Notes: a model not told the origin generated them from the letters alone. 52,695 nucleotides of DNA from an uncultured Campylobacterales bacterium (GCA_964447385.1 CAYUSV010000002.1:1-52695); one strand, 5' to 3'. Counted from the first letter of the stretch, positions 13,474 to 35,958 are shown. Numbers and translations are program-made.

Positions 13474-13476
13474 GAG

Positions 13477-14964: not shown

Positions 14965-14969
14965 ATTAG

Positions 14970-17406: not shown

Positions 17407-17445
17407 ATAAGTAATGTTCCTATTACTTAACCTTAAAGAGGAAAC

Positions 17446-18252: not shown

Positions 18253-18922
18253 TAATTTTAATGAACTTGTCAAAAAATATGAAAAATATAGAGGTAAAAG
18301 AAGAGATAAAATGCTTCTTAGTACATTGCTTGTTTTAGCGATATTAGCTGGTGGTTATTATTTGGTAACAAATAGCGGTTTTATCACACAAAGTTTCAAA
18401 AAAACTACACCAGAGTCACAAAAGAGTGGAACTATTGTAGATACTCAAATAGCTGATGAAACAACAGAAGATAACCCGGTACAAGAGATTAAAACACACA
18501 AAGAAGAGAAAGCTGAAAAACCACTCCAAAGAGTTAAGGTAGATACACCAAAAACTGAAGAGTTGCCAAATAAAGTCTATGATCGTACCACTAAAAAAAT
18601 AGAAAATACAAATCCATTTCAACTAAAAGTCAAGGAGAGAAAAAACCTATATAAACTCTTAACAGATGATAAAAAACAAAATAGTTATCAATCTGCTATA
18701 AGTGTGGCTCAGTTTTATTTTGAAGAAAAAAATTATGATCAGACAATTATCTGGTCTGTAAAAGCAAGTAAAAAAGATCCTAGAGAGAGTCTTCCGTGGA
18801 TTTTATATGCAAAATCAAAAGCTACACAGGGTAAAACAAAAGTTGCAAAAAAAGCACTCGCTATCTATTTAAAACATACCGACTCAAAAAAGGTACAAGA
18901 TTTGCTAGATACTTTGAAATAG
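18242..18922 (+). CDS. MshN-like bitopic protein (TM + C-terminal TPR-like helices)
   Basis: 226 aa. TM LLSTLLVLAILAGGYYLV, charged linker, C-terminal helical repeat (..AISVAQFYFEEKNYDQTIIWSVKA..). 11-nt overlap with mshM. Confidence 0.45.
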   Translation: MLNNNFNELVKKYEKYRGKRRDKMLLSTLLVLAILAGGYYLVTNSGFITQSFKKTTPESQKSGTIVDTQIADETTEDNPVQEIKTHKEEKAEKPLQRVKVDTPKTEELPNKVYDRTTKKIENTNPFQLKVKERKNLYKLLTDDKKQNSYQSAISVAQFYFEEKNYDQTIIWSVKASKKDPRESLPWILYAKSKATQGKTKVAKKALAIYLKHTDSKKVQDLLDTLK

Positions 18923-18959
18923 GATCATTTTAAACTAAATGATCCTCAAATTTTGAGGT
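18921..18959 (+). promoter_or_regulatory. two overlapping hairpins between the mshN-like ORF and mshE; the second pairs with the mshE Shine-Dalgarno
   Basis: AGGATCATTT(18921-30)/AAATGATCCT(18937-46) form a 10-bp stem. CCTCAAAATTTTGAGG (18944-59) is a perfect 16-nt palindrome. Its GAGG is the RBS 9 nt before the ATG at 18969. Confidence 0.5.
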
Positions 18960-18968
18960 AATTTAGAT

Positions 18969-20633: not shown

Positions 20634-21871
20634 AATATTTTGAAATAGTCTACATGATAGGAGGAGAGAAAAGCTCAACTATCATCCAATCCCTACACAA
20701 GATAGACGCTCTAAAGCAGTTTCAAAATCGCACTTTGGGCATAATGGTCTCAGTGGATGAGGTAAACGAACCTCTAATGATGCGTTTAGAAAATTTTACA
20801 AAATCAATCAAAAACAGATCGCTAAAAAAACGAGTCAAACCAGAGCCTTATATCGCTTCTCTTCGACAATTAGGTGTCATGCTTGATGCTGGAATTCCTA
20901 TAAATCAATGTTTTTTGGAAGTTGTAAATACAACCGACAACAAACAGATAAGAGAAATTTTTAGACAAATCGCTCTAAAAGTAGAATCAGGAAGTAGCAT
21001 ATCTCAGACATTTGCTGATTTCTCGTTTGAGCTTGGAAGTCTCTCTTATTCTCTTATCTCCCTTGGAGAGCAGACAGGTGCTTTGGCAGAAGCGGTGATA
21101 AAACTCTCAAATATATTGGATGAGATAGAACAAAATAGGAAAAAATTAAAAAAAGCTCTTCGTTACCCTTTTATTGTCATGCTTGCTATGGTTGGTGCTT
21201 TTATCACTGTTATAAAGATGATTGTTCCACAGTTTAAAGAGATGTTTGAAGAGTACAACAGCGATCTTCCCCTGCCTACTCAAATACTTTTAGGTATTGA
21301 GGATTTTATAAAAGAGAGTGGTTTGCTTATCTTAATCTCAATTATAGGCATTATCATAACTCATATTATACTCTATCGCCAAAAAGGTAGATACAAATAT
21401 CTAATGGATAAATATATCTTAAAAATCTATTTAGTAGGGAAAATTACCCGCTTATCTATGACAGGAAGATTTATGTATGTTTTTAACTCTCTTACAAACT
21501 CAGGAGTACCAATCATAAAAGCTCTCACTATTTCAGAAAATATAGTAGAAAATAGTTATCTTAAGGAGCGATTTGAACAGATAGAAGACTCTATCGAAGA
21601 GGGTAAGACACTAACCCAAGGATTTACAGAGAGTGAACAATTTGAAAATATGATCATACAGATGATCAAAGCCGGAGAGACAAGCGGATCTCTTAACAAA
21701 ATGCTTGAAAAAGTACATATCTACTACTCTGCCAAGTATAATGACCTAATCGACAATATCTCAACCTATATTGAACCAATCATGATAGCAGCTCTTGCTG
21801 GTTTTTTAACTCTATTTGCTCTTGGTATCTTTTTACCTATGTGGTCTATGGCTGAAGTAATTGGACAATAA
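20630..21871 (+). CDS. mshG: GspF/PilC-family inner-membrane platform protein
   Basis: 413 aa. Duplicated GspF domain (..LGVMLDAGIPI.., ..LTNSGVPIIKAL..) and three TM segments. ATGA overlap with mshE. Confidence 0.88.
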   Translation: MKYFEIVYMIGGEKSSTIIQSLHKIDALKQFQNRTLGIMVSVDEVNEPLMMRLENFTKSIKNRSLKKRVKPEPYIASLRQLGVMLDAGIPINQCFLEVVNTTDNKQIREIFRQIALKVESGSSISQTFADFSFELGSLSYSLISLGEQTGALAEAVIKLSNILDEIEQNRKKLKKALRYPFIVMLAMVGAFITVIKMIVPQFKEMFEEYNSDLPLPTQILLGIEDFIKESGLLILISIIGIIITHIILYRQKGRYKYLMDKYILKIYLVGKITRLSMTGRFMYVFNSLTNSGVPIIKALTISENIVENSYLKERFEQIEDSIEEGKTLTQGFTESEQFENMIIQMIKAGETSGSLNKMLEKVHIYYSAKYNDLIDNISTYIEPIMIAALAGFLTLFALGIFLPMWSMAEVIGQ

Positions 21872-21876
21872 TATAT

Positions 21877-22515
21877 TTATGTACATGTTATACTAAATGC
21901 CATACCAAGGTCAGAGCTAGAAAAATCAACAGAGTTGGTAGTATTAACATCAATGAGCATAAAATCACCACTTATAATTTGTCTCTTCTTGCTTAAGGAG
22001 CTTTCAACATAACATTTATTTGTAGAGTTTGTATCTACCATATAAAGCCAAAAGTCATTTTTATCAGGTTTTCCCTCTATGTCTCTTGAGTTATTTGTTG
22101 AACTAAATTTAACTCCAACAGTAGGATCAGAAGCTTTAGCTGTATAAATTCTGTAGATATTTGTACTATTATTTTCAAACTGCTTTTTAAAACCACTTTT
22201 GCCAGAAGTTTTTATCAATGCTCCTATATCGTCACCGTTTCGTGATAGATTATAAGGATAACCACTAGATGCTAAATCTGTCTCTATATCATCATCTACA
22301 CCATCATTGTTCCAATCAAAATCATCATCATTTACACTCCAAGTCCCATGAATTGACTCTAACGCTGCCGTAATAGCTGCTACGCTTGAGAGTTCTGTGG
22401 ATCTTTTTGCTTGATCTTTGATATTGGTAAATTTTGGTATAGCTACAGAAGATAGTATACCGATAATCACAATTACAAATATAAGCTCAACCATAGTAAA
22501 AGCATTTCGCTTCAT
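21877..22515 (-). CDS. type IV pilin (major-pilin candidate 1)
   Basis: MKRNA/FTMVELIFVIVIIGILSSVAIPKF class III signal. 212 aa. Two C-terminal Cys (..NKCYV.., ..SITCT) could form a D-region disulfide. AAGGAA RBS. Confidence 0.85.
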   Translation of the reverse strand: MKRNAFTMVELIFVIVIIGILSSVAIPKFTNIKDQAKRSTELSSVAAITAALESIHGTWSVNDDDFDWNNDGVDDDIETDLASSGYPYNLSRNGDDIGALIKTSGKSGFKKQFENNSTNIYRIYTAKASDPTVGVKFSSTNNSRDIEGKPDKNDFWLYMVDTNSTNKCYVESSLSKKRQIISGDFMLIDVNTTNSVDFSSSDLGMAFSITCT

Positions 22516-22547: not shown

Positions 22548-22574
22548 ATATCGACAAGGTAAACTAAATATATA
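22548..22574 (-). promoter_or_regulatory. candidate sigma-28 (FliA-type) promoter TATA-N15-GTCGATAT
   Basis: Minus strand reads TATA-TATTTAGTTTACCTT-GTCGATAT, ending 32 nt before the pilin ATG. The -10 octamer is identical to those at 27629 and 31492. The -35 has one mismatch to TAAA. Confidence 0.5.
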
Positions 22575-22639
22575 CTTATACTGAAAAAATAGATTAATTT
22601 TTTTTGTTTATGTAAAAAATTGTTACATTATATACACAA

Positions 22640-23350
22640 TTAAGTATGACACTCCAAAGGTGTTCTCTCTGGCTGGTTTAAAAACTTGTATCCATTGTAT
22701 ATTGTAAATATCCCATAAAGAATTACAGCAATAGAAGCTAGTTTTATCATCGTATTTCTAAAGCTTGTTTGCTTAAATACTCCTACAAAAAATCCCAATG
22801 AAAACAGAGCAGGGATAGTGCTAAGTCCAAATATCCCCATGACAATTGCACCCCAAAGCGGACTAGTTGTGCTGGCTGCTATGATGGCAAATGAGTAGAC
22901 CAGTCCACATGGCAAAAGTCCATTTAACATGCCTAATAGGAAAAAACTATAAAACGATTGTTTGCCCAAAAGAGTTTTAAAAGCATTTTGATACCAACTA
23001 TTTTTTGAGATAGAGTGCTCGATAAGGGTTAAAAACTTTATCTTTCCCGTTAGTGACAATCCAGCCAATATCATAGCAACTCCGGCTACGATGAGTAGTG
23101 TACCGTTTGCAGTGTTATTGATAGTAGTAACACCCCCGATAAAACCAAACACTCCACCCAAAATCATGTAGGTAAATATACGCCCAAAAGAGTAGGTAAG
23201 ATGAGCTATTGACTGTTTTGCTTTGCTCCATTTGTCATCTACTTTTGTACTAGTGTATGCGATGACAATTCCTCCACACATGCCGATACAGTGTCCAAAA
23301 GAGCCTAAAAAAGCGATAGCAATGATACTTAGTAAATTTACTGCTTCCAT
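22640..23350 (-). CDS. DsbD_2/TauE-like polytopic membrane protein (HCxxMCGG motif)
   Basis: 236 aa, ~6 TM. N-terminal GSFGHCIGMCGG and a second ..LLPCGL.. motif. 1-nt gap from the upstream NosL-like ORF. Confidence 0.6.
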   Translation of the reverse strand: MEAVNLLSIIAIAFLGSFGHCIGMCGGIVIAYTSTKVDDKWSKAKQSIAHLTYSFGRIFTYMILGGVFGFIGGVTTINNTANGTLLIVAGVAMILAGLSLTGKIKFLTLIEHSISKNSWYQNAFKTLLGKQSFYSFFLLGMLNGLLPCGLVYSFAIIAASTTSPLWGAIVMGIFGLSTIPALFSLGFFVGVFKQTSFRNTMIKLASIAVILYGIFTIYNGYKFLNQPERTPLECHT

Positions 23351-23351
23351 A

Positions 23352-23855
23352 TCACAGACCCAATACCTGTTTTTTGACTCTTGGGTCGGTTAGGTTTTCG
23401 CCTCGGAGCATTTTTAGACGCATTTTATCAAAATCCATCGCATCTTTTTCCTTTTTTTCTCTTGCACCAAATCCATATTTCATAGGAGTAGAAGCACCTA
23501 AAACATACCAAGCTTTTCTTGCATCTATCCACCCTCCACTATCTTCAGCATGTGTCCATATAGTAGCTTTTTCTTTGAACTCTTTATCTTCTAGCCATTT
23601 TATGAGACACCCTATATCATCAAAAAACCAAGTAGTTCCACTAGGGGATATGACTTGGGCAGCGTAGTTTTCACTTTTTATAGTCATAGCACATTGAGTA
23701 TCTTGAAAGTGATTTGGAATAATTTTTATAGGGAGCTTTTTTGTGTTATTTTCTTTTACTGTAACCATCTGTTTTTTATTAGAGAGCGCTACTATCACTA
23801 TTATAATAATTGAAGCGATAATCAAAGTTGTTAGAATTGGTACTAATTTTTTCAT
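23352..23855 (-). CDS. NosL-like protein A (membrane-anchored)
   Basis: Preferred ATG at comp(23853..23855) overlaps the upstream TGA (ATGA). TM anchor. ..QCAMTI..WFFDDIGCLIKW.. and ..AWYVLGASTPMKYGFGA.. resemble the NosL family. Confidence 0.65.
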   Translation of the reverse strand: MKKLVPILTTLIIASIIIIVIVALSNKKQMVTVKENNTKKLPIKIIPNHFQDTQCAMTIKSENYAAQVISPSGTTWFFDDIGCLIKWLEDKEFKEKATIWTHAEDSGGWIDARKAWYVLGASTPMKYGFGAREKKEKDAMDFDKMRLKMLRGENLTDPRVKKQVLGL

Positions 23856-24814
23856 AAAAAAACTCCGTTTTTGATGTAATACACCAAAGGATATAGTGTA
23901 CATAGTATGACAAAAATTGTGTTAAAAAGCCGTGAATATCGGTATAAACTCTCTACCTCCGTGTGGATTAGAAGTTTTAACACCAAGTTTGAAACTCCAA
24001 AAAACACTCCCAAAAAAAGTGTACCCCATAAAAGATAACCGATATAAAAATACTCTTTTTGTAACATACAAAATGGGCACTTATGTGCTGGAAGTTCATA
24101 GATATAGATACCAAAAAAATGAACAACTGATTGATAAGCAATATACAAAAAAACTAAATTAGAGATAGACAATAGTAGCGAATTTTTTCCAAAGCTCAAA
24201 ATAGTATTTAAAATATAAAGAAGATAAAAAAGTACCAAAAGTGTCGTTATACTCAACCCAAAAGAAAGTCTATTGTCTCCTGCTGATCCAAAGACAACAG
24301 AGCAACATTGTGCTAAATTTTCTATCCCTATAGTAGAAAAGTAAACAATATCTAAAGTAAATTCAACACCTATAAGTACAAATATCAAGGTAAAAAACCA
24401 AAACTTAACTTTTAAATATGGATAATCTTTAGCTTGGAAATCTTTTTGGTTGATGATAAGCCAGATACCGATGAAAAAAAGTATGATAATTTTTAAAAAC
24501 AGAAGCACATTTCCAAAATCACCAGCACCTAGCACACCAGTTGCGCACATAGCACCAGGTACTAAAACAGAAAGAGAATCAATCGTATAAGCAAAATAAG
24601 GCATAAGTAAAATTTTAAATATAAGCGAAAACAAGATGATCAAAACAATCAGATAAGCTCTTTTTTCTAATGTATACTGCTTGGTCGAGGTAGCGTTAAA
24701 ATCCCAATCTTTTAAGATACTAATAGCTCCTATAAGTGCGATAGAGTTTAATATCAAAAGCACTCCTTCGCTAAATATATAGATAAAAACGCTATTAGAT
24801 AAAAATATCTGCAC
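23852..24814 (-). CDS. Cys-rich polytopic membrane protein, unknown family
   Basis: 320 aa, about 9 hydrophobic segments. Cys motifs GAMCATG, AQCCSVVFG, HKCPFCM. Abuts the ABC ATPase stop. Confidence 0.6.
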   Translation of the reverse strand: MQIFLSNSVFIYIFSEGVLLILNSIALIGAISILKDWDFNATSTKQYTLEKRAYLIVLIILFSLIFKILLMPYFAYTIDSLSVLVPGAMCATGVLGAGDFGNVLLFLKIIILFFIGIWLIINQKDFQAKDYPYLKVKFWFFTLIFVLIGVEFTLDIVYFSTIGIENLAQCCSVVFGSAGDNRLSFGLSITTLLVLFYLLYILNTILSFGKNSLLLSISNLVFLYIAYQSVVHFFGIYIYELPAHKCPFCMLQKEYFYIGYLLWGTLFLGVFFGVSNLVLKLLIHTEVESLYRYSRLFNTIFVILCTLYPLVYYIKNGVFL

Positions 24815-25483
24815 CTATATAATCTCACCATCTTTTATATTTATAACTCTGTCTTCAAAATTAACTTCATCAAAAATAGGATCATGAGTTGCTATGACGA
24901 TCGTGATACCTAGTTTTTTAAGTGTTTTTAAAACCTCTATAAAGTTTAAAGAGTTTGCCAAGTCTAAATTTGCTGTCGGCTCATCACATAAAATTATCTT
25001 TGGGTCATTGACCAAAGCTCTTGCTATGGCACATCTTTGTTTTTCACCACCTGAGAGGTTATTAACGCATTGATGAGCTTTGTGTGTTATATTTGCTAAA
25101 TTCATAGCTTTTTGAACTTTTTCCCTGATTTGTGATGGTGCAAAACCTAGTGGAATAAGAGGCAAAGAAATGTTTTCACTTACACTTAGTATCTCAAAAA
25201 GATTAAAAGGTTGGAAGATAAAACCGATATTTTGCACTCTAAACTTTGATGCATGATGCTCAGGTAGTTTTGCGATACGCTCACCATCTATGATAATCTC
25301 TCCACTTGTGGGCTTGATAAGAGCAGATATAAGTGATAGAAGCGTAGATTTACCACTACCACTTACCCCTTTTAAGATGACAAGCTCTCTCTCTTTTATA
25401 GAGAGATTTATATTTTTTAAAGCACAAAACTCTCTGTTTGAGTTTGGATTAAAAGTCATATAGAGTGATTTTATCTCTATCAT
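24815..25483 (-). CDS. ABC transporter ATP-binding protein (MacB/LolD/FtsE-like)
   Basis: Walker A GVSGSGKST, signature LSGGEKQR, Walker B ILCDEPT. 4-nt overlap with the permease. Confidence 0.9.
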   Translation of the reverse strand: MIEIKSLYMTFNPNSNREFCALKNINLSIKERELVILKGVSGSGKSTLLSLISALIKPTSGEIIIDGERIAKLPEHHASKFRVQNIGFIFQPFNLFEILSVSENISLPLIPLGFAPSQIREKVQKAMNLANITHKAHQCVNNLSGGEKQRCAIARALVNDPKIILCDEPTANLDLANSLNFIEVLKTLKKLGITIVIATHDPIFDEVNFEDRVINIKDGEII

Positions 25484-26664
25484 TTCATCGCCTCTATCGG
25501 GTCAATGATAGATATCTTCCATACAGGTATGAGAACTGAAGCTATAAAAGGGGTTATGAAAAATAAAAAGAGTGAAAAAAGAAATCCAAAATCAATAACA
25601 GGGATAAAAGTTGTACTATTTTGCAAGTTATTAAAGCCTAAAAATATATCTCTTAACAGTGGTGCATTAAAAATATAGACATACATGTATGCAATGATAG
25701 CACCTATGATAAAAGCTGTGACACCAATCACTAAAGTCTCTAAAACTTTTAGTTTAATTAGATCTTTTATGCTCCAGCCCAAAGCCCTAAGTATGCCTAT
25801 CTCTTTTTTATCTACTGAGTTTACCATAGAGTATCGCTGATAGAGAATCATCATAAATGTCAAAAGTGTGATAACAAAAAGAAGCAAAAACAGTCCACCT
25901 TTATAATTAAATAGTTTTTCATACGAGTTTTGTATATCATCTTTTGAAATGACTCTAGTATCATAATGTTTTAATAATAGCTTGAACTTGACATTATCTC
26001 GTTCTGCATCATTTGGTACATTTAAGATGATGTCGGTTGCTTTATCGTCATCGATACCTAAAATATCTCTTGCTAAGTCTATGTTTACCATTATTATATC
26101 ATTGCCTATTAAACTAGTGTCTTTTGGTAATGTTTCGTATATATGAACTTTTTTAACACCCTTTTGTGGTGTTTTGAAAAGAAAGTTTTTTGTATAGTGA
26201 TTTTTCGCCATAAAGTTTTTGACACCTTCGCCAACGACCATGTTGTCTTTTTCAAGAAATTTTTTGATATCAAAGTCGCTAAATAGTTTTTTAAACTCCT
26301 CATCTAAAAAAGGATCAAAAAAATCAACTCCCACAACCGTAAAATACTCACTTTGAGCTCTCATAAAATATCTGCCAAATACCCTAGCTTGTACATCACT
26401 AACACCTTTGATAGAGCTATATAAATCAATAACATCAGTATCGATGTCAACACTCCTTCCGCCTCTAATCTTTTGCACAACAAAGTCTGGTTGTGCATCA
26501 AGAGTAGTTAAGACTTCATATCTAATCGAAGAGCTTATAAAAAGTACCGAACACAAAAGAGCAATCATAAATACAGAGATAAAAAAAACTACACTATGTT
26601 TTGTTCTATGTTTATAGATGAGTAAAAACAAAAAGTTAAAAAAAGTACTATTATTCATATACAA
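25480..26664 (-). CDS. FtsX/MacB-type ABC permease
   Basis: 394 aa. N-terminal TM, ~220-aa extracytoplasmic domain, three C-terminal TMs (FtsX-like topology). Confidence 0.8.
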   Translation of the reverse strand: MYMNNSTFFNFLFLLIYKHRTKHSVVFFISVFMIALLCSVLFISSSIRYEVLTTLDAQPDFVVQKIRGGRSVDIDTDVIDLYSSIKGVSDVQARVFGRYFMRAQSEYFTVVGVDFFDPFLDEEFKKLFSDFDIKKFLEKDNMVVGEGVKNFMAKNHYTKNFLFKTPQKGVKKVHIYETLPKDTSLIGNDIIMVNIDLARDILGIDDDKATDIILNVPNDAERDNVKFKLLLKHYDTRVISKDDIQNSYEKLFNYKGGLFLLLFVITLLTFMMILYQRYSMVNSVDKKEIGILRALGWSIKDLIKLKVLETLVIGVTAFIIGAIIAYMYVYIFNAPLLRDIFLGFNNLQNSTTFIPVIDFGFLFSLFLFFITPFIASVLIPVWKISIIDPIEAMK

Positions 26665-26848
26665 AACCCATAAAATCGATAGGCTTCATCTTTGGATATA
26701 ATCGTAACTCTTCATCATATACTCTAAACCTTGGCTCTAAATAAGAAGTTGATAACGAAAGAGAGGGAAGATGTGTAAAAGTTGCTACAGTTTGGGTACT
26801 CTTTTTATTATGCACAAAGGCATGCCACAAAATGAAGGTTATAATCAT
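26651..26848 (-). CDS. possible small membrane protein (uncertain start)
   Basis: 65-aa ORF overlapping the permease start by 14 nt. No SD before its ATG. The in-frame upstream codons continue a hydrophobic helix back to an AGGAG at comp(26902..26906). Confidence 0.25.
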   Translation of the reverse strand: MIITFILWHAFVHNKKSTQTVATFTHLPSLSLSTSYLEPRFRVYDEELRLYPKMKPIDFMGFVYE

Positions 26849-26909
26849 AAAAAGAGCTAGAAAAAAAGAGAAAAAAACCTTAGTAAGAGTTGTGATGATA
26901 TCTCCTGTA

Positions 26910-27551
26910 TCAGTCTAAATCATAGACTAGTTTTTCATCTATATCACTAAATTTTACTATTTTTTTCCCATGATGTTCATATGAAAAACTTTTGGCATCT
27001 TTTTGGGTTTTAAAAGCGATAAATTCATCTCCCATAGGACCATAGACAGTGGAGCCTGTAACATACCAAGCTGTTTTGGCATCTATAGGTTCTAGTGTAT
27101 AGTAATCATTTACGATAATCTGTGCAATATCTATCTTTTTGTGTTTATCAAGATAGTACTTTAGCATATCTTTAACACCATCAAAATAGTAAGTTTTATC
27201 TTCTATTTGTAATGATGTTATCCATTTTGGAAATTTTACTACAAACATACCACAAACTGGACACTTTGCATCTTTAGGAGGATTGACTTTTTGTAAAATT
27301 TTAGTCTTAGGCTCTCTTTTGGTTAAGTATATTACCACTGCATATAATTTTTTATTATCTATGTTGGAGCAATAATTTTTATCTTTTATCTGAAGTTTTA
27401 GCTCATTTGGTGTGTTGTATCTGATAGTTTCAATGGCTTTTTTATCACACATGATATCATATAGTTTTTCGCCTCTTTTGAGTAGTTTTGTCTCATCAGC
27501 CAAGGCTATGGTAAAGATAAAAGAGAACAAAAACAGAGTTTTTATAAACAT
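26910..27551 (-). CDS. NosL-like periplasmic protein B (CPVCGM motif)
   Basis: Signal peptide (..IALA/DE). KCPVCGMFVVKF.. then ..AWYVTGSTVYGPMGDEFIAFKTQKDAKSF..HGKKIVKFSDI, typical of the NosL family. AAGGA RBS, TATAAT at comp(27581..27586). Confidence 0.7.
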   Translation of the reverse strand: MFIKTLFLFSFIFTIALADETKLLKRGEKLYDIMCDKKAIETIRYNTPNELKLQIKDKNYCSNIDNKKLYAVVIYLTKREPKTKILQKVNPPKDAKCPVCGMFVVKFPKWITSLQIEDKTYYFDGVKDMLKYYLDKHKKIDIAQIIVNDYYTLEPIDAKTAWYVTGSTVYGPMGDEFIAFKTQKDAKSFSYEHHGKKIVKFSDIDEKLVYDLD

Positions 27552-27609
27552 TAAAATCCTTGATAAAATTAAGATACAAGATTATACAGATGCTTTATTA
27601 AGTGTTTGT

Positions 27610-27636
27610 TAAAGGGCTTCTATTTTTAGTCGATAT
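27610..27636 (+). promoter_or_regulatory. candidate sigma-28 promoter TAAA-N15-GTCGATAT
   Basis: TAAA 27610-13, a 15-nt spacer, GTCGATAT 27629-36. The AGGAG RBS follows at 27644-48 and the ATG at 27656. Confidence 0.55.
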
Positions 27637-27655
27637 TGGCTATAGGAGATTTATT

Positions 27656-28714
27656 ATGGATTTTAAATTAGTACAAGAGTATACAAAAGACCTAAGTATA
27701 CTTTATGTTGAAGACAATGATGCAATTAGAGCAAGTACGACTTCCGTTTTTGAAAATTTTTTCAAAAACGTTGATGTTGAGACTAATGGACTTAGCGCTT
27801 TAGAGAAGTATGTAAACTACTATAGCTCACATGGTGTTGATTATGATTTGGTAATCACTGATATAAATATGCCGGTTCTTAACGGTATTGACATGGCTAA
27901 AAAAATTCTTGAACAAACCCCAACTCAACCCATAATTTTTGTAACCGCCCACGATGAAAGTTCCTATATGCTTGAAGCTATCAGAATGGGCGCATCAAGC
28001 TTTTTAATTAAGCCTCTGAAAATTGATGATCTCGCTTCTGTTTTACATAAAGTATCTCAAGCAATTTGTGATAGGCAACAAGTACAACAACACTACACTC
28101 AAATAGAAGAGTTTAGTGCAAAACTGCAAGAACGGAACAGTGAGCTTGAAAAATCCCTGAGAGTTTTGAATACAATGGTTTATAAAGATCATCATACAAA
28201 CATAGATAAAACTGACAAAAAAAAATCAACCCCTAAAGAGAGTGAATTATATAGAGCACAAGAGCAAATTGCTTTTCTTGTAAAAGATGATCTACCTGAA
28301 TTAAAAGAGTTACATTTAGAGATTGATTCACTGCTAATTGCGATTATTGTTAATGATGTTGATGAAAATATTATATATGAAAACTTACCAAAGATGACAA
28401 TACTCTTTTCTAACTATGCAGCTATCTTGCAACTATACTCTTTTTACAATGAGCTCAGTAAAGCAATGTTAGAATTTACAAAAATCATTCAAACAGTTGA
28501 TCTCCCAGAGGAAAAAGAGAGTAGATTAAATATATTTTTATTTCTTGAGAGTTTCATACATGTACTCGGTAAATGGCAAAATGATCTACATCTTCTTGAA
28601 TATGACAAATTAAACTATTTAGATGCATCAATAATCAGTGATATGAGTACAATTTCGATTATGTGGAAACAAGAAGAAGTATCAATCGAGTCAAGTGAAT
28701 TAGAGTTTTTTTAG
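27656..28714 (+). CDS. response regulator: REC domain + ~230-aa helical C-terminal domain of unknown type
   Basis: LYVEDND..DLVITDINMP..FVTAH..K REC motifs. No HTH, AAA+, GGDEF or HD motif seen after it. ATG 27656 with an AGGAG RBS is preferred over the track GTG at 27602. Confidence 0.8.
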   Translation: MDFKLVQEYTKDLSILYVEDNDAIRASTTSVFENFFKNVDVETNGLSALEKYVNYYSSHGVDYDLVITDINMPVLNGIDMAKKILEQTPTQPIIFVTAHDESSYMLEAIRMGASSFLIKPLKIDDLASVLHKVSQAICDRQQVQQHYTQIEEFSAKLQERNSELEKSLRVLNTMVYKDHHTNIDKTDKKKSTPKESELYRAQEQIAFLVKDDLPELKELHLEIDSLLIAIIVNDVDENIIYENLPKMTILFSNYAAILQLYSFYNELSKAMLEFTKIIQTVDLPEEKESRLNIFLFLESFIHVLGKWQNDLHLLEYDKLNYLDASIISDMSTISIMWKQEEVSIESSELEFF

Positions 28715-28727
28715 GATAAGTATAAAT

Positions 28728-30191
28728 ATGAAAAATAAATCATTTATACAAACATTAAAAACTACAGAGTATCATCCAGAACTTGTCAAAATGTTTCTGG
28801 ATACCGTCTCAAAGGGAATCATATCTGCGAATATTATGATTCCACTCTTTTATGCTACTATCTTTATAAAGTTTGTTCCTGTATATATCTTAGCCATATG
28901 GTTATCTGCTCATGCTATAACCATCTACTTTAGACTAAAGATTAAAACTTCAATATTAAAATTCCAAGATAATAATAATCCAAAAATTAAAAAATATGTT
29001 CAATTAAATATTTATGTCATTGCACTAAGCGGTCTGCTCTGGGGAGTAGCAAGTATCATCTCAGTCATATATGCACCTGAATTTTACATGTTTTTAACTA
29101 TGGGGCTTATTATGGGTTTAAGTGCAGGTGCTGCATTTACACTTACGCCTATATTACATGCTTTTTTGAGTTTTGTATTTTCATCTATTGTACCTTTTAT
29201 TTGTGCACTATTTATTTTTAATTCCAATGAATATTTTATAATAATTCTAATGCTACTTTTCTTTATGACTTTTGTTGTCCTTAATGGATATGGTTTTTAT
29301 AAAAAACTTTTACAAAATATCGAACTTAAACACAAGTTTATCAAACTTAATAATAATTTAGAGAAAGAGGTTGCCAATCGAACGGTACAGTTATGTGAAT
29401 TAAATAATTCTCTTGAAAAAAGAATCAGGCAAGAGGCAAAAGCCAACAGAGATAAAGATAGTCAACTTCTTCAACAATCTCGTTTAGCTCAAATGGGTGA
29501 AATGATTAGCATGATTGCACACCAATGGAGACAACCACTGTCTGCTATCTCATCAACAAGTATTAACATGAAAATGAAATTTTTCTTTGATGAGTTTAAT
29601 TTAAATGATAAAGAGCAACAACAACTGTGTAAAAAATACTTTGAGCAACAACTAGATAATATAGAAAGCTATGTCCAAAACCTTACAACTACAATCGATG
29701 ACTTTAGAAATTTTTACAAACCAAACAGAGGTACAAAAAGGGTCAATGTAAATGAACCTATTCAAAAGGCACTTAGTATCATCAAAGACTCTATCAATTC
29801 ATCAGGCGTTAAAGTGATCGAAACTTTTAAAGCAAATATAGAATTAGATCTATTTGAAAGTGAATTGATGCAAGTGTTTTTAAATATTTTGAAAAATGCG
29901 CAAGATAATTTTAAAGAAAAAGATATTGAAAACCCCTATATAAAAATTATCACTGCAAATGCAAATGGTGGTGTTAGGATAGTTTTTAGAGATAATGGTG
30001 GTGGAATTGATAAAAATATACTTGTAAAGATATTTGATCCTTATTTCTCAACAAAAGATGAAAAAAATGGTACAGGATTGGGGCTATATATGAGTAAAAT
30101 AATCGTAGAAGAGCATCATAACGGTAAACTTTATGTAGAAAATATTGATGATGGTGTACAATTTGTTGTAGAGTTTAGAGATAAGATATAA
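28728..30191 (+). CDS. sensor histidine kinase with polytopic N-terminal domain
   Basis: ~6 TM segments, coiled coil, H-box MIAHQWRQPLSAI, N/G boxes (..NILKNAQDN.., ..DNGGGI.., ..GTGLGLYMS..). Confidence 0.85.
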   Translation: MKNKSFIQTLKTTEYHPELVKMFLDTVSKGIISANIMIPLFYATIFIKFVPVYILAIWLSAHAITIYFRLKIKTSILKFQDNNNPKIKKYVQLNIYVIALSGLLWGVASIISVIYAPEFYMFLTMGLIMGLSAGAAFTLTPILHAFLSFVFSSIVPFICALFIFNSNEYFIIILMLLFFMTFVVLNGYGFYKKLLQNIELKHKFIKLNNNLEKEVANRTVQLCELNNSLEKRIRQEAKANRDKDSQLLQQSRLAQMGEMISMIAHQWRQPLSAISSTSINMKMKFFFDEFNLNDKEQQQLCKKYFEQQLDNIESYVQNLTTTIDDFRNFYKPNRGTKRVNVNEPIQKALSIIKDSINSSGVKVIETFKANIELDLFESELMQVFLNILKNAQDNFKEKDIENPYIKIITANANGGVRIVFRDNGGGIDKNILVKIFDPYFSTKDEKNGTGLGLYMSKIIVEEHHNGKLYVENIDDGVQFVVEFRDKI

Positions 30192-30219
30192 TTTTGTAAG
30201 AAATCTATCTTATAATATT

Positions 30220-30235
30220 TGGCACAATAATTGCT
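30220..30235 (+). promoter_or_regulatory. candidate sigma-54 promoter TGGCAC-N5-TTGCT
   Basis: Exact match to the -24/-12 consensus (TGGCAC 30220-25, AATAA, TTGCT 30231-35), 35 nt before the ATG at 30270. A TATAAT at 30211-16 is an alternative sigma-70 -10. Confidence 0.5.
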
Positions 30236-30269
30236 AAAACTAAAATATATTAATTTTTTAGGAGCTATT

Positions 30270-30752
30270 ATGTTAAGTACTTTATCTTTTGAATATCAAA
30301 ATCCAAAAATTACCTCTTCATTGAAACAGACAACAAAATTTATGCGTATAGATGAGATCGATCAAGAGCTAAATACCATTTTTCAAATCCCACAAACACT
30401 ATCAAGGACAAAACAGAGAGAGCTTTATCACATAATGTCAAAAATGGATAAAATCCATATAAAAAACTTTGCTGATGAAGTAGAAGATATCTACAACCAA
30501 ATTGACTCAATTTATACTAATGATGAGATAACACCAACTCAAAAACAGACTCTTTCAACCTTAGAAAAACAGTTAAATCGTCTATTTAAATATGATTTAA
30601 ACAACCCTATTACAATAGAAGATGAAGAGAAGTTAGATCAACTAAATAGAGAAATTGATGCTCTATATGAGGTAAAAGAGCCAACGATACAAGAACTTAC
30701 AAGAGCGGGAGTTTTGTTTTGTGAGAAGAAGATGCTATCCGCATCTTCTTAA
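30270..30752 (+). CDS. hypothetical cytoplasmic acidic helical protein (160 aa)
   Basis: ATG 30270 has a GGAG RBS 5 nt upstream. The TTG start at 30231 in the track coincides with the -12 element. No signal peptide or TM. Repeated ..EID..IY.. helical motifs. Confidence 0.6.
   Translation: MLSTLSFEYQNPKITSSLKQTTKFMRIDEIDQELNTIFQIPQTLSRTKQRELYHIMSKMDKIHIKNFADEVEDIYNQIDSIYTNDEITPTQKQTLSTLEKQLNRLFKYDLNNPITIEDEEKLDQLNREIDALYEVKEPTIQELTRAGVLFCEKKMLSASS
30726..30750. terminator. 10-bp hairpin between convergent genes (no clear U-tract)
   Basis: AAGAAGATGC-TATCC-GCATCTTCTT spans the last codons of the 160-aa ORF, 17 nt from the pilin-2 stop. Confidence 0.35.
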
Positions 30753-30766
30753 AATTAATATTCACC

Positions 30767-31456
30767 CTATAAAGAGTCTATTATAGCTACATTAGCTGTT
30801 GAAGTTCCATTCACATCACATGATACTGCTATTTCACCAGCGGCGTCGGCAGCAGCAACTGTATCTACAAATGTATTTGCTGTCGTTAAAGCAGTCGTTA
30901 AATCTATCAATTTTATCTCTCCACTAACTAATTTTACATTAGTTGATGATGCACCATATGTAACATTTGCATCATATGCTGAAGCATTAAAGACCCAAAC
31001 ATCATTTTTATCAGGTTTACCATTTGTATCAGATGTTCCTTGTCTAACTCCTGAAGAAGCATTTGAAGCTTTTCCTTTGATAAAATAGATATCATCATAA
31101 ATACCATCACCACCTGGTGTACCTGCATCTGCATAAGCAATAATTCTTAATCCGTCACCTTTTTTTATAATTTTACTAAGTACTTTATCATTACTATTTG
31201 CAGCAGCATATGTAGTTGCTAAGTTAGTATTCCAAGAAGTATCATGCCAATCTACATTTACATTATCATTATCTTCTAGTTGAAACTCCATTGCTGCTAC
31301 AATAGCTCCATCCAATCCAGTTAAACTTGAATACTCAGCATTTACCTTAGCTCTATCTTTAATATCTCCAAATTTTGGAACGGCAGCGACTGCTAATATA
31401 CCTATGATTATGATCACAAAAATTAACTCTACCATTGTAAAACCACTTCTTCTCAT
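30767..31456 (-). CDS. type IV pilin (major-pilin candidate 2, paralogue of 21877..22515)
   Basis: MRRSG/FTMVELIFVIIIIGILAVAAVPKF class III signal. Shares ..GKPDKNDVW.. with pilin 1 (..GKPDKNDFW..). 229 aa, single Cys. Confidence 0.85.
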   Translation of the reverse strand: MRRSGFTMVELIFVIIIIGILAVAAVPKFGDIKDRAKVNAEYSSLTGLDGAIVAAMEFQLEDNDNVNVDWHDTSWNTNLATTYAAANSNDKVLSKIIKKGDGLRIIAYADAGTPGGDGIYDDIYFIKGKASNASSGVRQGTSDTNGKPDKNDVWVFNASAYDANVTYGASSTNVKLVSGEIKLIDLTTALTTANTFVDTVAAADAAGEIAVSCDVNGTSTANVAIIDSL

Positions 31457-31491
31457 CGAAAAATCCTTTAAAATTTAATTTCCTACAAACT

Positions 31492-31518
31492 ATATCGACC
31501 CTTGAAAAGATTTCTTTA
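31492..31518 (-). promoter_or_regulatory. candidate sigma-28 promoter TAAA-N15-GTCGATAT
   Basis: Minus strand reads TAAA-GAAATCTTTTCAAGG-GTCGATAT, ending 35 nt before the pilin-2 ATG. AAGGA RBS. Confidence 0.55.
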
Positions 31519-31523
31519 CTTTT

Positions 31524-31532
31524 TGATATAAT
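31524..31532 (+). promoter_or_regulatory. extended -10 element TGaTATAAT for moeA
   Basis: TGATATAAT lies 18 nt before the ATG at 31550, with AAGGA in between. Confidence 0.45.
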
Positions 31533-31549
31533 GACAAAAAAGGATCTCT

Positions 31550-32758
31550 ATGGCAATTTCTATTTATGAAGCTCTAGCACTTATAGAAAAAAACCTACCT
31601 ACTATTTCAAGTGAAACTATTCCCATAGAAAATGCTATCTCCCGTATAGCTTCAAAAACCGTTAAGGCAACTTTAGCTCTACCAATATTTAACAATTCTG
31701 CTATGGATGGTTATGGACTTTGTGGATCATCAGATAGTTATAAAATAATCGGCAAAATTCTTGCAGGAGATGCTCATACCTATAATTTAAAAAACACAGA
31801 GTGTATAAAAATTCTAACAGGTGCAAGAGTACCCAAAAGTGTTGATACTATCATTCCACAAGAGAATACAAAAGAGAGTGAATCTTTTATAAATATACAA
31901 AAACCAGTCAAATTTGGAGCAAATATCCGATATCGTGGTGAAGATATAAAAGAAAACGATATTGTTGTTTTAAAAGGTGATACAATAGATTCATCACATA
32001 TCGGATTGTTAGCTAGTCAAGGCATAACCCATATAGAAATATATCGTAAAATTCGTGTAGCTATTTTTGCTAGTGGAAGCGAGCTAAAACTCCACCACGA
32101 GCCGTTAGAAGGTTCACAAATTTATAATTCAAACACACCTTATTTACTCTCAAGATCTGAGGAACTTGGATGTCAAACACGATTTGTAGGTAAGAGCAAA
32201 GATGATATAGAATCACTAAAAGAACTCATAAAGACATCATTAGATTGTGATATCATTATCACTAGCGGTGGTGTTAGTGTGGGAGAAGCTGACTATACAA
32301 AAGAGGCATTTAAAGATCTATCTATGGAAACTTTTTTTGATAAAATTCAGATAAAACCAGGCAAACCAACTACTTTTGGAAAAATTAATGATAAAATCAT
32401 ATTAAATCTTCCTGGCAATCCTTTGGCAAGTGCACTGAATTTTGAGATATTTGGTAAATTTATGATAGCAAAATTAAGTGGCAAAAAAAACCATCACTTA
32501 AATACAATTAAAACAACAATAAGCACAAATATACCCTCACCTCGTCCAGTGGCAAATGTTATACCAGGTTTTTATAATGGTTCATCTTTTACTCCAACAA
32601 AAAAATTCGCACCGGGAATGGTAAATGTTTTAAACCACTGCAATGGATTGATTGTCATAGATGAGATGACAAATGAGTTAAAAACAGGAGATACTGTAAA
32701 GTTTTTACCATTAAAATGGGACTTTATGAGGGAAGATTTTGTGAAATTTACTTCATAA
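31550..32758 (+). CDS. moeA: molybdopterin molybdotransferase (copy 1)
   Basis: 402 aa. ..NSAMDGY.., ..IITSGGVSVGEADY.., ..KPGKPTTFG.., ..LPGNPLAS.. MoeA motifs. Confidence 0.88.
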   Translation: MAISIYEALALIEKNLPTISSETIPIENAISRIASKTVKATLALPIFNNSAMDGYGLCGSSDSYKIIGKILAGDAHTYNLKNTECIKILTGARVPKSVDTIIPQENTKESESFINIQKPVKFGANIRYRGEDIKENDIVVLKGDTIDSSHIGLLASQGITHIEIYRKIRVAIFASGSELKLHHEPLEGSQIYNSNTPYLLSRSEELGCQTRFVGKSKDDIESLKELIKTSLDCDIIITSGGVSVGEADYTKEAFKDLSMETFFDKIQIKPGKPTTFGKINDKIILNLPGNPLASALNFEIFGKFMIAKLSGKKNHHLNTIKTTISTNIPSPRPVANVIPGFYNGSSFTPTKKFAPGMVNVLNHCNGLIVIDEMTNELKTGDTVKFLPLKWDFMREDFVKFTS

Positions 32759-32778
32759 AGAGACAAACGCCTCTTTAT
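32755..32778. terminator. AT-rich 8-bp hairpin between convergent moeA and the cytochrome gene
   Basis: ATAAAGAG-ACAAACGC-CTCTTTAT includes the moeA stop codon. The stem is weak. Confidence 0.3.
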
Positions 32779-32788
32779 GAAATATAGA

Positions 32789-33556
32789 CTATTTTAAAGT
32801 ACTGATATATGCTGAAACATTTGCGATATCAGCGTCACTCATCCTTGTAACTTGACCTTTCATAACACCTTTCATGCTACCACCATAAGAACCATCTTTG
32901 TAGCCCTTTAATGCAGCTTCAGTTTTAGATGCATCCCAGCCAGAAATAACAGCACTCGCACTCAACGCCTTTTTCTCACCATTTGCCCCATGACAACCTA
33001 TACATTTTGAGTATAATGTTTTACCAGCTGCTGCATCACCGGCAGATGTAACAGTTTTACTTACTTTTTCAGTAGCTGATGCTACCGCACCAGTTGTTGC
33101 TGCTACTGCACCTACAGCTGTTTGCGCTACAGCCGAAGTTGTGCTACTCGCTTTATCTACAACCGCAGACCCTGCATCTTTTGCAGCCTCTACTGCACTA
33201 CTCCCAGCATCTTTTACTTTATCTACCGCACCACCCGCTGCATCTTTAGCACCATCAACAACAGCTCCGGCAGCGTCTTTTGTAGCTTCAACTGCACCAT
33301 TTGCAGTATCTACTACCGCATCTTTTGCAGCAGTTGCTATATCTTTCCCCTCTTTTACAGCTTCTACTGCACCAGCTGCTGCATCTTTAGCTACCTCTTT
33401 TGTAGCTTCAACTGCCTCTCCTGCAACTTCACCTGCTTTATCAGCAACCTTACTTGCTGCATCTTTTACGCCATCAGCGATACTGCCACCCTCTTTATCA
33501 CCACATCCTACTAAAAATGCTACTACTACCAACGAATAAATGAATGTTTTTTTCAT
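32789..33556 (-). CDS. lipoprotein monohaem cytochrome c (c553-like domain tethered by an Ala/Lys/Asp-rich repeat linker)
   Basis: Lipobox LVGC. ~150 aa of degenerate (A/V)xKDAAxGAVxx repeats. C-terminal ..CIGCHG..GYKDGSYGGSMKGVMKGQ..ISTLK class I cytochrome c domain. Confidence 0.8.
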   Translation of the reverse strand: MKKTFIYSLVVVAFLVGCGDKEGGSIADGVKDAASKVADKAGEVAGEAVEATKEVAKDAAAGAVEAVKEGKDIATAAKDAVVDTANGAVEATKDAAGAVVDGAKDAAGGAVDKVKDAGSSAVEAAKDAGSAVVDKASSTTSAVAQTAVGAVAATTGAVASATEKVSKTVTSAGDAAAGKTLYSKCIGCHGANGEKKALSASAVISGWDASKTEAALKGYKDGSYGGSMKGVMKGQVTRMSDADIANVSAYISTLK

Positions 33557-33642
33557 AATTGTCCTACTCCTTTAAATTTGTATTATATAGTGTATTCTAC
33601 AGCTTAATAGTTAAAAATAAGTTGAAAGTTATTTTAATCAAT

Positions 33643-34224
33643 TTAATTTGGGCTTGGATTTATAAAAATACTATTATTTAAAAGATTATCCCACATCAAA
33701 AGATCACTCCATTCACTCTTAACCTGTTTGGAAAAAATGATATCTCTTAAATTAATCTCTCCCATAAGTTTACTATACGCATCTTCTCTAAACCCTTGTG
33801 CATATCCTGTATCTGTCTCATGAACTATTACACTATGTACTCTTACATTTTTTTCACCATTTACCATTTTTGTCTGAGAAAGTAACCTGTCTACCATCAA
33901 AAATATAATACGAGAAAACTGTTCAGCAGATGGAGAAACAGGGAGGATTACCCACCTAAGACTATGCTTTTTTATCATATCTATATACTCTTTGTCATCT
34001 TTTTCCCAAATAGCAGTAGCATGATCAAATGAATCAATCAACTCTTTTATAGATAACTTTGTCAATCCAAAATCATAGACCATCTGCCCATGATCGAGAT
34101 AATTTGACTCAAACAAAACTTCTATCTTGTATGAGTGTCCGTGTATGCTATATTTACATCTATCGCTAGTACATCCTCTAACTACATGAGCATTTTCAAA
34201 CTTAAATAATTTTCTTATTATCAC
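33643..34224 (-). CDS. queD: 6-carboxytetrahydropterin synthase
   Basis: ..FKFENAHVV.., ..HGHSYKIEV.., ..HETDT.. PTPS/QueD motifs. 4-nt overlap with queE. Confidence 0.8.
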   Translation of the reverse strand: MIIRKLFKFENAHVVRGCTSDRCKYSIHGHSYKIEVLFESNYLDHGQMVYDFGLTKLSIKELIDSFDHATAIWEKDDKEYIDMIKKHSLRWVILPVSPSAEQFSRIIFLMVDRLLSQTKMVNGEKNVRVHSVIVHETDTGYAQGFREDAYSKLMGEINLRDIIFSKQVKSEWSDLLMWDNLLNNSIFINPSPN

Positions 34225-34955
34225 CTACCCTCCTCATTATCCCATAACCTTATATGCATCCTATCTACATAATTATAACCGTTTTGAATACAAAAAAGCG
34301 CAACAGCCTTATCATTTTTACAAAGTTCACTTGCTGTACTTCCCATCGGCATACAGTAGACTTGAGTTTTGAGATATGATTTTGTTATCTCTCTTATCTC
34401 TTTAGTATCAAGATCATCTCTACTCAAAACAAATTTAAAAAATGACTCTTTTGTATTTAAGATTATCTCTTTTATCGCTTCTTTATTGATCCGCTTTGAT
34501 CTACTCTCTGCACTATTTTTAAGCTTTACGCTCATAGCAAATACTATCTCTTTATAGATTGAATATTTTTCAAAATCTATCTTTATCGTTGCATTGGTCT
34601 CAAACGTGATCTTATGACCCAACGCTCTATAATAAATAAGCGCATCTAAAAGAACTCTATTTTGATAATGCAAAAGCGGTTCCCCACCAGTAAAAACAAT
34701 ATCAGGTCTAAAATCCAAATCATGCAAATAACTATCAATTATCGGCACAAGATCATCAACCCTATCCCAAGTATCACCAAAATACTTTTCATTAACAGCC
34801 CTAATAGAGTCACAACCTACCAACTCTTCATAACGCACCCCAAATCCTGCACATCCAAGATTACACCCACCAAGTCTTATAAAAACAGAAGGTGTACCTA
34901 CAAACTTACCCTCTCCTTGAAATGAATAAAAAGATTCAACAACAAAAAGCATCAA
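34221..34955 (-). CDS. queE: 7-carboxy-7-deazaguanine synthase (radical SAM)
   Basis: ..[29 protein letters not shown].. N-terminus typical of QueE. 4-nt overlap with moaA. Confidence 0.8.
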
Positions 34956-35917
34956 CCGCCTGTCTCATAAAATGCTCTACTTGAACTCTCACCATTTTCA
35001 TTATCCCAACGATTCTCTTTTGGCTTATCTTTTAGTACAGTTTTTAAAATTTCCACCGCTTTTGGTATATCTTTGGCTTTAACAGCCTCTTTGATACTCA
35101 TCGCTTCATCAAAATACAAACACGGTATGAGATGCCCTTCAGCCGTCAACCTAATACGATTACAACTCTCACAAAAATCATGCTTATGTGGATCAATCAA
35201 TCCAAATTTATATCCATCTTCTAGAAAATAAGAAAAAGATGGGCTACTACCTTCTCGTCCCAGCTTTTTAATAATATACTTCTCTTTGATAATTTCCAAT
35301 ATCTCTTTACCAAGAAGCCCTTTAAGCTCATCTAATGCCATTGCATTTTTCATATACTCGATAAAACGAATCTCTATATCTCGCTCTTTACAAAAATCCA
35401 ATATATCAACTATCTCTCTTTCGTTAATTCCTTTTAAAGGAACCATATTGATCTTGACTTTAAGTCCAGCTTTTAAAGCTGCATCTATCCCACTTAAAAC
35501 ATCTTTTAAAATATCTTTTTGTGCAATTTTTTGTGCAACCTCAGGTTTTAAAGAGTCTAAAGAGATATTGAGTCTAATTAACCCTGCATTTTTTAGTTTT
35601 TTAGCTAATGAGGGTAAAAGATATCCATTTGTAGTAAGAGCCAAATCAATACCACTTTTATAATTTGAAATCATCCCTATAAACGAATCCAGATCATATC
35701 TCAAAAGTGGCTCACCGCCTGTAATCCTGATCTTTGTAATCCCTTCATCAATAGCTGCTTTTATAAACAAAAAAAGTTCTTCAAAACTGAGTAAATCCTC
35801 TCTTGGCACCCATGAAAAAGGTTTATCAGGCATACAATACAGACATCTAAAATTGCACCTCTCCGTCACCGAAACCCTAAGATAATCAACTTTTCTACCA
35901 CACCCATCTATCAACAT
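34952..35917 (-). CDS. moaA: GTP 3',8-cyclase
   Basis: ..[18 protein letters not shown].. radical SAM cluster, C-terminal ..[19 protein letters not shown].. second cluster, GG tail. Confidence 0.92.
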
Positions 35918-35931
35918 CTATTTCCCACCCC

Positions 35932-35958
35932 TAAAACATAATATCTTTTAACCGATAT
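35932..35958 (+). promoter_or_regulatory. candidate sigma-28 promoter TAAA-N15-ACCGATAT
   Basis: TAAA 35932-35, a 15-nt spacer, ACCGATAT 35951-58, ending 33 nt before the ATG at 35992. AAGGAG RBS. Confidence 0.55.

Follow-up and report, generated by a model that had tools for sequence, protein, structure and literature searches.

Candidate sigma-28 promoters before type IV pilin, response-regulator and chemoreceptor genes in an uncultured Campylobacterales bacterium

A 52,695-nt stretch of DNA from an uncultured Campylobacterales bacterium (hereafter the window; 32% GC, 94% coding and 6.4% intergenic) carries four elements that match the bipartite promoter pattern of the flagellar sigma factor sigma-28 (FliA), and these precede two type IV pilin genes, a response-regulator gene and a gene pair encoding a PAS protein and a chemoreceptor. 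We consider it likely, at a probability of roughly 0.78, that all four belong to the sigma-28 class of promoters, the case being strongest for those before pilin 2 and the PAS gene (sites 3 and 4). The original prediction, made from the sequence of the window, had placed the pilins, the regulator and the chemoreceptor pair under sigma-28 control; conservation in relatives, an enrichment specific to the 15-nt spacer and flagellar controls all support this assignment, while transcription from the sites and its dependence on FliA are predicted. Both the promoter class and the presence of non-flagellar genes in FliA regulons are already known, and what would be new is an extension, conserved within a clade, to a type IV pilus, a response regulator and a taxis pair.

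Four sites and their frequency in the window

Direct reading of all four sites confirmed the coordinates, gene distances and 15-nt spacing that had been predicted for them.

Site 1, complement(22548..22574), minus strand: TATA-tatttagtttacctt-GTCGATAT, ending 32 nt 5' of the pilin-1 ATG (22515)
Site 2, 27610..27636, plus strand: TAAA-gggcttctattttta-GTCGATAT, 19 nt 5' of the response-regulator ATG (27656)
Site 3, complement(31492..31518), minus strand: TAAA-gaaatcttttcaagg-GTCGATAT, 35 nt 5' of the pilin-2 ATG (31456)
Site 4, 35932..35958, plus strand: TAAA-acataatatctttta-ACCGATAT, 33 nt 5' of the PAS gene (35992)

The -10 element (G/A)(T/C)CGATAT is present at all four sites and agrees with GCCGATAA or with the Campylobacterota form CGATwt. 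At sites 2, 3 and 4 the TAAA -35 element and its 15-nt spacer are exact, and site 1, with TATA in this position, combines a good -10 with an imperfect -35. Every site is intergenic and oriented in the sense of its gene, and each gene has a ribosome-binding site of the AGGA type. The response regulator was taken to start at the ATG at 27656, which is preceded by AGGAG; the GTG at 27602 given in the list of open reading frames (ORFs) is not the true start. When the intergenic CGATww elements pointing towards a neighbouring gene were compared across the window, the four sites were conspicuous, and site 3 is the strongest candidate sigma-28 promoter.

An exhaustive scan of both strands of the window found TAAA-N15-RYCGATAT four times against an expectation of 0.03, the exact matches being sites 2, 3 and 4 and an antisense copy at 25204-25230; site 1 was excluded from this count by its TATA. 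The octamer GTCGATAT occurs three times (0.61 expected), and the three copies, all intergenic and correctly oriented, are those of sites 1 to 3. An expectation of one or two octamers per window, estimated originally, was thus slightly high. The hexamer CGATAT alone occurs 46 times against 12 expected, mostly within coding DNA, and is therefore not diagnostic by itself; the bipartite pattern and its position are. When the spacer of TAAA-Nx-NNCGATWW was varied, five matches were found in the window at 15 nt and between 0 and 3 at each other length from 10 to 21 nt. The original prediction had left coding regions out of its search, and their inclusion added the antisense copy, which lies in an ABC ATPase gene, and two copies in a pilus assembly operon, all of which are described below.

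Conservation in relatives and flagellar controls

A scan of species-representative genomes with a pilin alignment yielded 56 Campylobacterales loci, 717,733 bp in total. The nearest of these genomes are metagenome-assembled genomes (MAGs) of Campylobacterales and Sulfurospirillum, with a pilin identity of at most 68%, and the exact pilin 1 protein was found only on short metagenomic contigs. In the pilin loci TAAA-N15-NNCGATWW occurs 44 times, compared with 12 to 24 times at the other spacings from N10 to N21 and 13.3 times on average (sd 3.8) in sequences simulated from a Markov model, and the excess at N15 is explained by matches at the promoter position.

Conservation was most complete for the pilin-2 type, in which the full bipartite motif stands 5' of 12/12 genes checked (a set that includes the first gene of tandem pilin arrays), 32-48 nt from the ATG, locus L037 having the variant GCCGATGT. 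The three PAS orthologues (L006, L012 and L039) all have TAAAAT(A/T)AA...ATACCGATAT at 30-34 nt from the ATG. For the pilin-1 type, a -10 element of the form nnCGAT(A/T/C)(T/A) was kept in six of the seven readable upstream regions (present in L005, L007, L008, L009, L012 and L039, absent from L006), 29-41 nt from the start, and the TAAA -35 was found among them in L007 only. Orthologues of the response regulator and of its kinase were absent from the pilin loci; those of the regulator were taken from a separate homologue search and four contigs. In four lineages, at 53-61% identity, they carry G(A/T)CGATA(T/G) 19-33 nt from the ATG, together with a degenerate -35 that reads TACA, TTAA or TTTA. 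The -10 has been retained in the pilin-1 and response-regulator orthologues even though the surrounding intergenic DNA has diverged. As candidate promoters, sites 3 and 4 are thus strong, while sites 1 and 2 are weaker than had been claimed, since their orthologues conserve the -10 half alone.

As a ranking check only, the window was scored with a position weight matrix trained solely on the sites of other genomes, spacer columns included, which gives too much weight to orthologous spacers and scores sites 1 and 2 too low. Site 3 ranked first (19.9 bits) and site 4 second (17.9), followed by the copy at 13367..13393 in the assembly operon (15.4).

The 56 Campylobacterales pilin loci contain no flagellin genes, the single flagellin found being in a Thiobacillus locus, but one of them (L033, from a related MAG) does contain a flagellar control. 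There, TAAATAAATATAGACAACTGCCGATTT lies 32 nt 5' of flaG (Pfam FlaG, 7.5e-23), which is followed by two genes that resemble fliD and fliS by size and position alone. The flaG-fliD-fliS operon is sigma-28 dependent in Campylobacter jejuni and Helicobacter pylori. Flagellin loci were collected separately from metagenomes, the query being an alignment of the N-termini of FlaA from C. jejuni and H. pylori. T(A/T)AA-N15-NNCGATWW was found in 37 of the 72 distinct Campylobacterota flagellin upstream regions, and the sigma-54 promoter TGGAAC-N5-TTGC in another 23 of the 72. This division of flagellin genes between sigma-28 and sigma-54 is the FlaA/FlaB dichotomy of Campylobacter and Helicobacter. The spacing in the flagellin set was 15 nt in 28 cases, 14 nt in five and 16 nt in four, with essentially none at other lengths. 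The positive control that the original prediction had proposed, a motif before flagellin genes, was thus obtained in relatives of the organism rather than in the window's own genome, and the elements before the pilin, regulator and PAS genes are the same as those before flagellin and flaG. A practical by-product is a validated motif for the phylum, TAAA-N15-nnCGATwt with a tight spacer of 14-16 nt, by which flagellin genes of the sigma-28 and sigma-54 types can be told apart on metagenomic contigs.

Other features were seen in these sets of loci. Most of the 5' leaders of sigma-28-type flagellin genes (L085-L160) contain a conserved hairpin with AAGGA in its loop, for example gGCAAGGATGCc, which resembles the CsrA-binding structure of the flaA mRNA. 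Distant pilin homologues from Sulfuricurvum and Sulfurimonas (L038, L059, L060 and L076) lack the CGAT motif and share another upstream block, ..ggttcataatga..ggttacaagagtaatc.., at about 40-70 nt from the pilin ATG, which suggests a different regulatory solution in Sulfurimonadaceae. In L036, a sigma-28 motif, TAAACAAATTCTGCTTTTTGACGATTT (2654-2680, plus strand), stands 5' of a gene for a membrane GGDEF diguanylate cyclase (2713-3759) that lies directly downstream of the pilin; this is of note since the pilus ATPase has an MshEN domain, which binds cyclic di-GMP (c-di-GMP).

Alternative readings and predicted regulation

Several points weigh against a sigma-28 assignment of the four sites. 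Pfam and NCBIfam searches of the window proteins found no fliA, flgM or flagellar structural genes, and the presence of FliA in the organism is expected from its relatives and from the literature, in which FliA, FlgM, RpoN and FlgRS are reported from every Campylobacterota species of the F3 chemosensory class, including the genus Sulfurospirillum, with loss only in Arcobacter (PMC9321776, PMC2147049). The TAAA -35 of sites 1 and 2 is lost in orthologues. Neither the L006 pilin-1 orthologue nor the L033 pilin homologue has a CGAT element, the latter despite L033 being the only MAG locus with a flagellar control, and the link between motif and pilin is thus not universal. At site 1 the -10 shares bases with a perfect TATAAT hexamer, so that sigma-70 could also use this site. 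Lastly, CGATAT is over-represented in coding DNA, where one exact full match, the antisense copy, is probably due to chance.

It could be envisaged that the motif is read by another factor, namely a further paralogue of the sigma-28 family that serves pili and taxis only, much as WhiG does other functions in Streptomyces, or a regulator whose binding site looks alike. We regard this as unlikely. Sigma-28-family factors with non-flagellar regulons do exist (PMC13595943), and the presence of the motif before flaG but not before the pilin in L033 implies that flagellar and pilin promoters can be separated from one another. In sequence, spacing and position, however, the pilin, PAS and regulator sites are indistinguishable from the flagellin and flaG promoters, and a bipartite 4+8 element with a 15-nt spacer, in a single orientation and at a fixed 19-48 nt from the start, has the form of a sigma promoter and not of a typical dimeric regulator site.

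Very unlikely, in our view, is the reading that these are ordinary sigma-70 promoters of an AT-rich genome, in which CGATAT merely overlaps a TATAAT-like -10 and TAAA belongs to an AT-rich upstream tract. Sigma-70 promoters of Campylobacterota lack a strong -35, and an AT-rich upstream tract is typical of them. TATAAT-like overlaps occur at every site (GATATAAT, with the perfect TATAAT, at site 1, TATAGT at site 3, and GATATT at sites 2 and 4), and the failure of orthologues of sites 1 and 2 to conserve the TAAA -35 would also fit such promoters. What the orthologues conserve, however, is the CG of CGAT and not TATAAT, which is missing from L007 (GTCGATTT), L009 (GTCGATCT) and L036 (GCCGATTT) alike, and CG is rare in intergenic DNA of 32% GC. 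Sigma-70 also leaves unexplained why the enrichment is limited to a 15-nt spacer from TAAA, and the same element is borne by flagellin and flaG promoters. A scan of the region for the sigma-70 consensus was uninformative, its 71 matches being at chance level (70.9 expected). Chance matches in AT-rich intergenic DNA, finally, are effectively refuted by the comparative data: the one chance exact match at 25204-25230 and the frequency of CGATAT in the window fit them, but the four full matches against 0.03 expected, the conservation of orthologous positions in up to 12 other genomes and the spacer-specific enrichment do not.

If the four sites are sigma-28 promoters, as we favour, FliA-RNA polymerase would recognise the -10 nnCGATwt and, at the stronger sites, also TAAA 15 nt upstream. 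Transcription would begin a few bases 3' of the -10, and the AGGA ribosome-binding site would fall within short leaders of about 12-27 nt. The FliA regulon of this lineage, which is near to Sulfurospirillum, would then take in both major-type pilins of a type IV pilus resembling the mannose-sensitive haemagglutinin (MSHA) pilus, an orphan-type response regulator (followed here by a kinase) and a taxis pair consisting of the PAS protein and a methyl-accepting chemotaxis protein (MCP) with a CZB domain, and probably also two internal promoters of the pilus assembly operon. In many bacteria, sigma-28 classically acts on genes for chemoreceptors. Pilin would be made in the motile, chemotactic cell state, alongside the late flagellar and chemotaxis class, and the usual FlgM checkpoint, if it operates, would delay pilin until the flagellar hook-basal body is complete. 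From the sequence evidence we infer FliA binding, the transcription starts, the coupling to FlgM and a physiological role as landing pili for swimmers.

A wider proposal, which we put forward tentatively and rate at slightly below an even chance, is that FliA has captured the whole MSHA-type pilus system in a free-living Campylobacterales clade with ties to Sulfurospirillum: both pilins, the internal assembly promoters, a dedicated response regulator and the taxis pair would all be gated by FlgM, and pili would be made only by swimmers. In a more extreme version, pili and taxis may be the main reason why the lineage retains FliA.

The regulation of flagella and of type IV pili is usually held to be alternate or separate, with pilin genes typically under sigma-70 or sigma-54. 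A sigma-28 promoter on MSHA-type pilins, if this is what the sites are, would offer a simple, hard-wired way to provide swimmers with landing pili, and the motif is present before pilins in more than 12 environmental Campylobacterales genomes. It would also widen the FliA regulon of a phylum in which this is known mainly from two host-associated pathogens without such pili; C. jejuni and H. pylori are not known to have an MSHA-type pilus. We found no report in the literature of FliA-type promoters before mshA or before MSHA-type or type IVa pilins, or of such a link in Campylobacterota, although coverage was incomplete and this is weak evidence.

The closest sequence model is provided by the late flagellar promoters of C. 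jejuni and H. pylori (flaA, flaG-fliD-fliS and the small RNAs CjNC1 and CjNC4), with which the sites share short leaders and the -10 CGATwt, the sigma-28 -10 element of C. jejuni (PMC4626219). The TAAA 15 nt upstream is also that of the general FliA consensus TAAA-N15-GCCGATAA. The genes concerned differ, being type IV pilins, a response regulator and a PAS/MCP pair here and not filament genes, and FliA dependence, demonstrated in the two pathogens, is here a prediction. A flagellar sigma factor acting on pilin genes has been described in Bdellovibrio bacteriovorus and B. exovorus, in which FliA drives a Tad/Flp (type IVb) pilin operon together with flagellins, so that pili and flagellum belong to the same motile state (PMC5430801). 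Two other pilin genes of Bdellovibrio, flp3 and flp4, are outside FliA control (PMC5430801), which parallels the patchiness seen in L033 and L006. The two cases differ in phylum, in lifestyle and in pilus type (Tad/Flp type IVb in Bdellovibrio, MSHA-like type IVa with an MshEN-domain ATPase here), and the Bdellovibrio promoter was assayed with a heterologous FliA reporter (PMC5430801) whereas the present promoters are known from sequence alone.

The MSHA pilus is associated with the attachment of motile cells to surfaces. The assembly genes of the window resemble the msh locus of Vibrio cholerae in their secretin, AAA_22 (MshM-like), TPR, T2SSE with MshEN and T2SSF genes, an identity drawn from domains only; the pilins, in contrast to V. 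cholerae, are not part of the assembly operon and run opposite to it. MshE of V. cholerae is a c-di-GMP receptor (PMC4624772). Pilin promoters of the PilS/PilR-RpoN type, as in Pseudomonas and Xanthomonas (PMC7170775), likewise place the major pilin under an alternative sigma factor and not sigma-70, but those of the window carry a sigma-28 motif and no GG-N10-GC.

Further copies, sigma-54-like elements and gene neighbourhood

The copies of the motif inside coding DNA are as follows.

13367..13393, plus strand: internal copy TAAA-N15-GCCGATAG (in full, TAAATAATTTACTAAAATTGCCGATAG), 83 nt 5' of the mshI-like gene (13477)
15883..15909, plus strand: internal copy TAAA-N15-GCCGATTA (in full, TAAAGAAGGTGGAAAATTTGCCGATTA), 111 nt 5' of the secretin gene (16021)
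25204..25230, plus strand: antisense copy with an exact TAAA-N15-ACCGATAT, inside the ABC ATPase gene

At the position equivalent to 13367..13393, L005, L006 and L012 have TAAA-N15-GCCGATA(G/T). The CG of this copy is supplied by a Pro codon which is CCG in all four genomes, a codon that makes up 7% of the Pro codons of the window. Since this rare codon is fixed while other Pro codons nearby vary between the four genomes, the DNA sequence itself seems to be under selection here. The copy at 15883, which uses the rare Ala codon GCC (8% of Ala codons), has a counterpart at the same position in L005 and L012; in L006 it is degraded, with a one-base shift and TAGA at the -35. Within the assembly operon, the 13367 copy is thus a candidate for an internal promoter and the 15883 copy a weaker one, the comparison of four related genomes being no more than suggestive, and the assembly genes may also receive sigma-28 input.

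The exact copy at 25204-25230 was considered as an antisense promoter and rejected. Its orthologues in L162, L165 and L167 read CCTATAT, not CCGATAT, and it is probably a chance copy.

The original prediction had further proposed a flagellum-style hierarchy on the pilus, in which sigma-54 would serve the assembly operon and sigma-28 would subsequently serve the pilins, on the basis of a sigma-54-like element before the pilus-side genes.

7085..7100, plus strand: sigma-54-like element TGGCATagagtGTGCT, about 43 nt 5' of gene 7143, fitting GG-N10-GC

This element resembles those sigma-54 flagellin promoters that have a GTGCT -12 box (L096 and L101). It is missed by the strict pattern TGG-N8-TTGC, which shows no enrichment in the window, with eight matches against 5.5 expected. 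An enhancer-binding protein with an AAA+ Sigma54_activat domain is not among the window proteins, the response regulator at 27656 having a REC domain only, though the gene for such an activator could lie in another part of the genome. In addition, the internal sigma-28-like copies in the assembly operon blur the proposed division between the two sigma factors. While the sigma-28 core of the prediction is supported, a tidy division of labour, with sigma-54 acting on assembly genes and sigma-28 on pilin genes, is therefore unproven and may be too simple. The sigma-54-like elements of the window are that at 7085 and one at 30219, which stands before an unrelated ORF, and GG-N10-GC is absent from the pilin promoters.

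The element at 30219-30235 (plus strand) is a textbook sigma-54 promoter, TTGGCACaataaTTGCT, and matches sigma-54 much better than that at 7085. It lies about 35 nt 5' of an AGGAG-ATG start, the ORF at 30270-30752, which encodes a 160-aa protein without a family match directly 3' of the histidine kinase gene; the TTG start at 30231 in the ORF list would overlap the promoter.

The genes of the window were identified by Pfam and NCBIfam searches of its proteins, and those relevant to the four sites are listed here.

11071..21871, plus strand: MSHA-like type IV pilus assembly genes, from their Pfam/NCBIfam domains
21877..22515, minus strand: pilin 1, a type IV prepilin that carries the methylation motif at its N-terminus (Pfam N_methyl, NCBIfam IV_pilin_GFxxxE, TIGR02532)
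27656-28714, plus strand: response regulator, a REC domain followed by about 200 aa without a family match
28728-30191, plus strand: histidine kinase, directly following the response regulator
30767..31456, minus strand: pilin 2, a paralogous type IV prepilin (Pfam N_methyl, NCBIfam TIGR02532)
35992-36501, plus strand: PAS protein, first gene of the PAS and MCP-CZB pair
36470-37777, plus strand: MCP with a C-terminal CZB domain, overlapping the PAS gene and forming with it a chemotaxis or energy-taxis pair

Both pilins match the family with a class III signal and N-methylation site (G/A-F-T-x-x-E; N_methyl, TIGR02532) and are 35% identical to each other. The assembly cluster comprises an N_methyl minor pilin, the mshI-like gene (13477), the secretin (16021-17406), an AAA_22 (MshM-like) gene, a TPR gene, a T2SSE ATPase gene with an MshEN domain (18969-20633) and a T2SSF platform gene (20630-21871). 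Pilin 1 is convergent with the 3' end of this operon, and its position next to T2SSF is also found in relatives; from this adjacency and conserved synteny the two pilins would be the major subunits of the MSHA-like machine. The PAS/MCP-CZB pair is syntenic in L006, L012 and L039. The response-regulator family is widespread in Campylobacterota, and in the relatives examined no kinase follows it.

A NosL/FtsX/ABC/DsbD_2 block sits between pilin 1 and the response regulator, and molybdenum-cofactor genes between pilin 2 and the PAS/MCP-CZB pair. In L006, L012 and L039 the two pilin genes adjoin, and thus this whole block appears to have been inserted between them in the window. The response regulator is always divergent from the NosL-FtsX-ABC-DsbD_2 block (L162-L168, and 27552-27655 in the window), and several lineages have a tandem TTGTTAAATTTT repeat 5' of the response-regulator -10.

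The product of the first gene of the pilus-side cluster (7143-9143, plus strand) is a repeat protein of 666 aa, its C-terminus being a Peptidase_S74 domain (endosialidase chaperone, tail-fibre), and its best homologues are tail-fibre-domain proteins, mostly from Bacteroidota, with no pilus proteins among them. This first gene is directly followed by one for a 629-aa protein without a family match (9140-11029, plus strand). At the edge of the window (51911-52617, minus strand), a nucleotidyltransferase gene (Polbeta/NTP_transf_2) adjoins an NTase_sub_bind/HepT-like gene, a pair which resembles an MNT-HepT toxin-antitoxin module.

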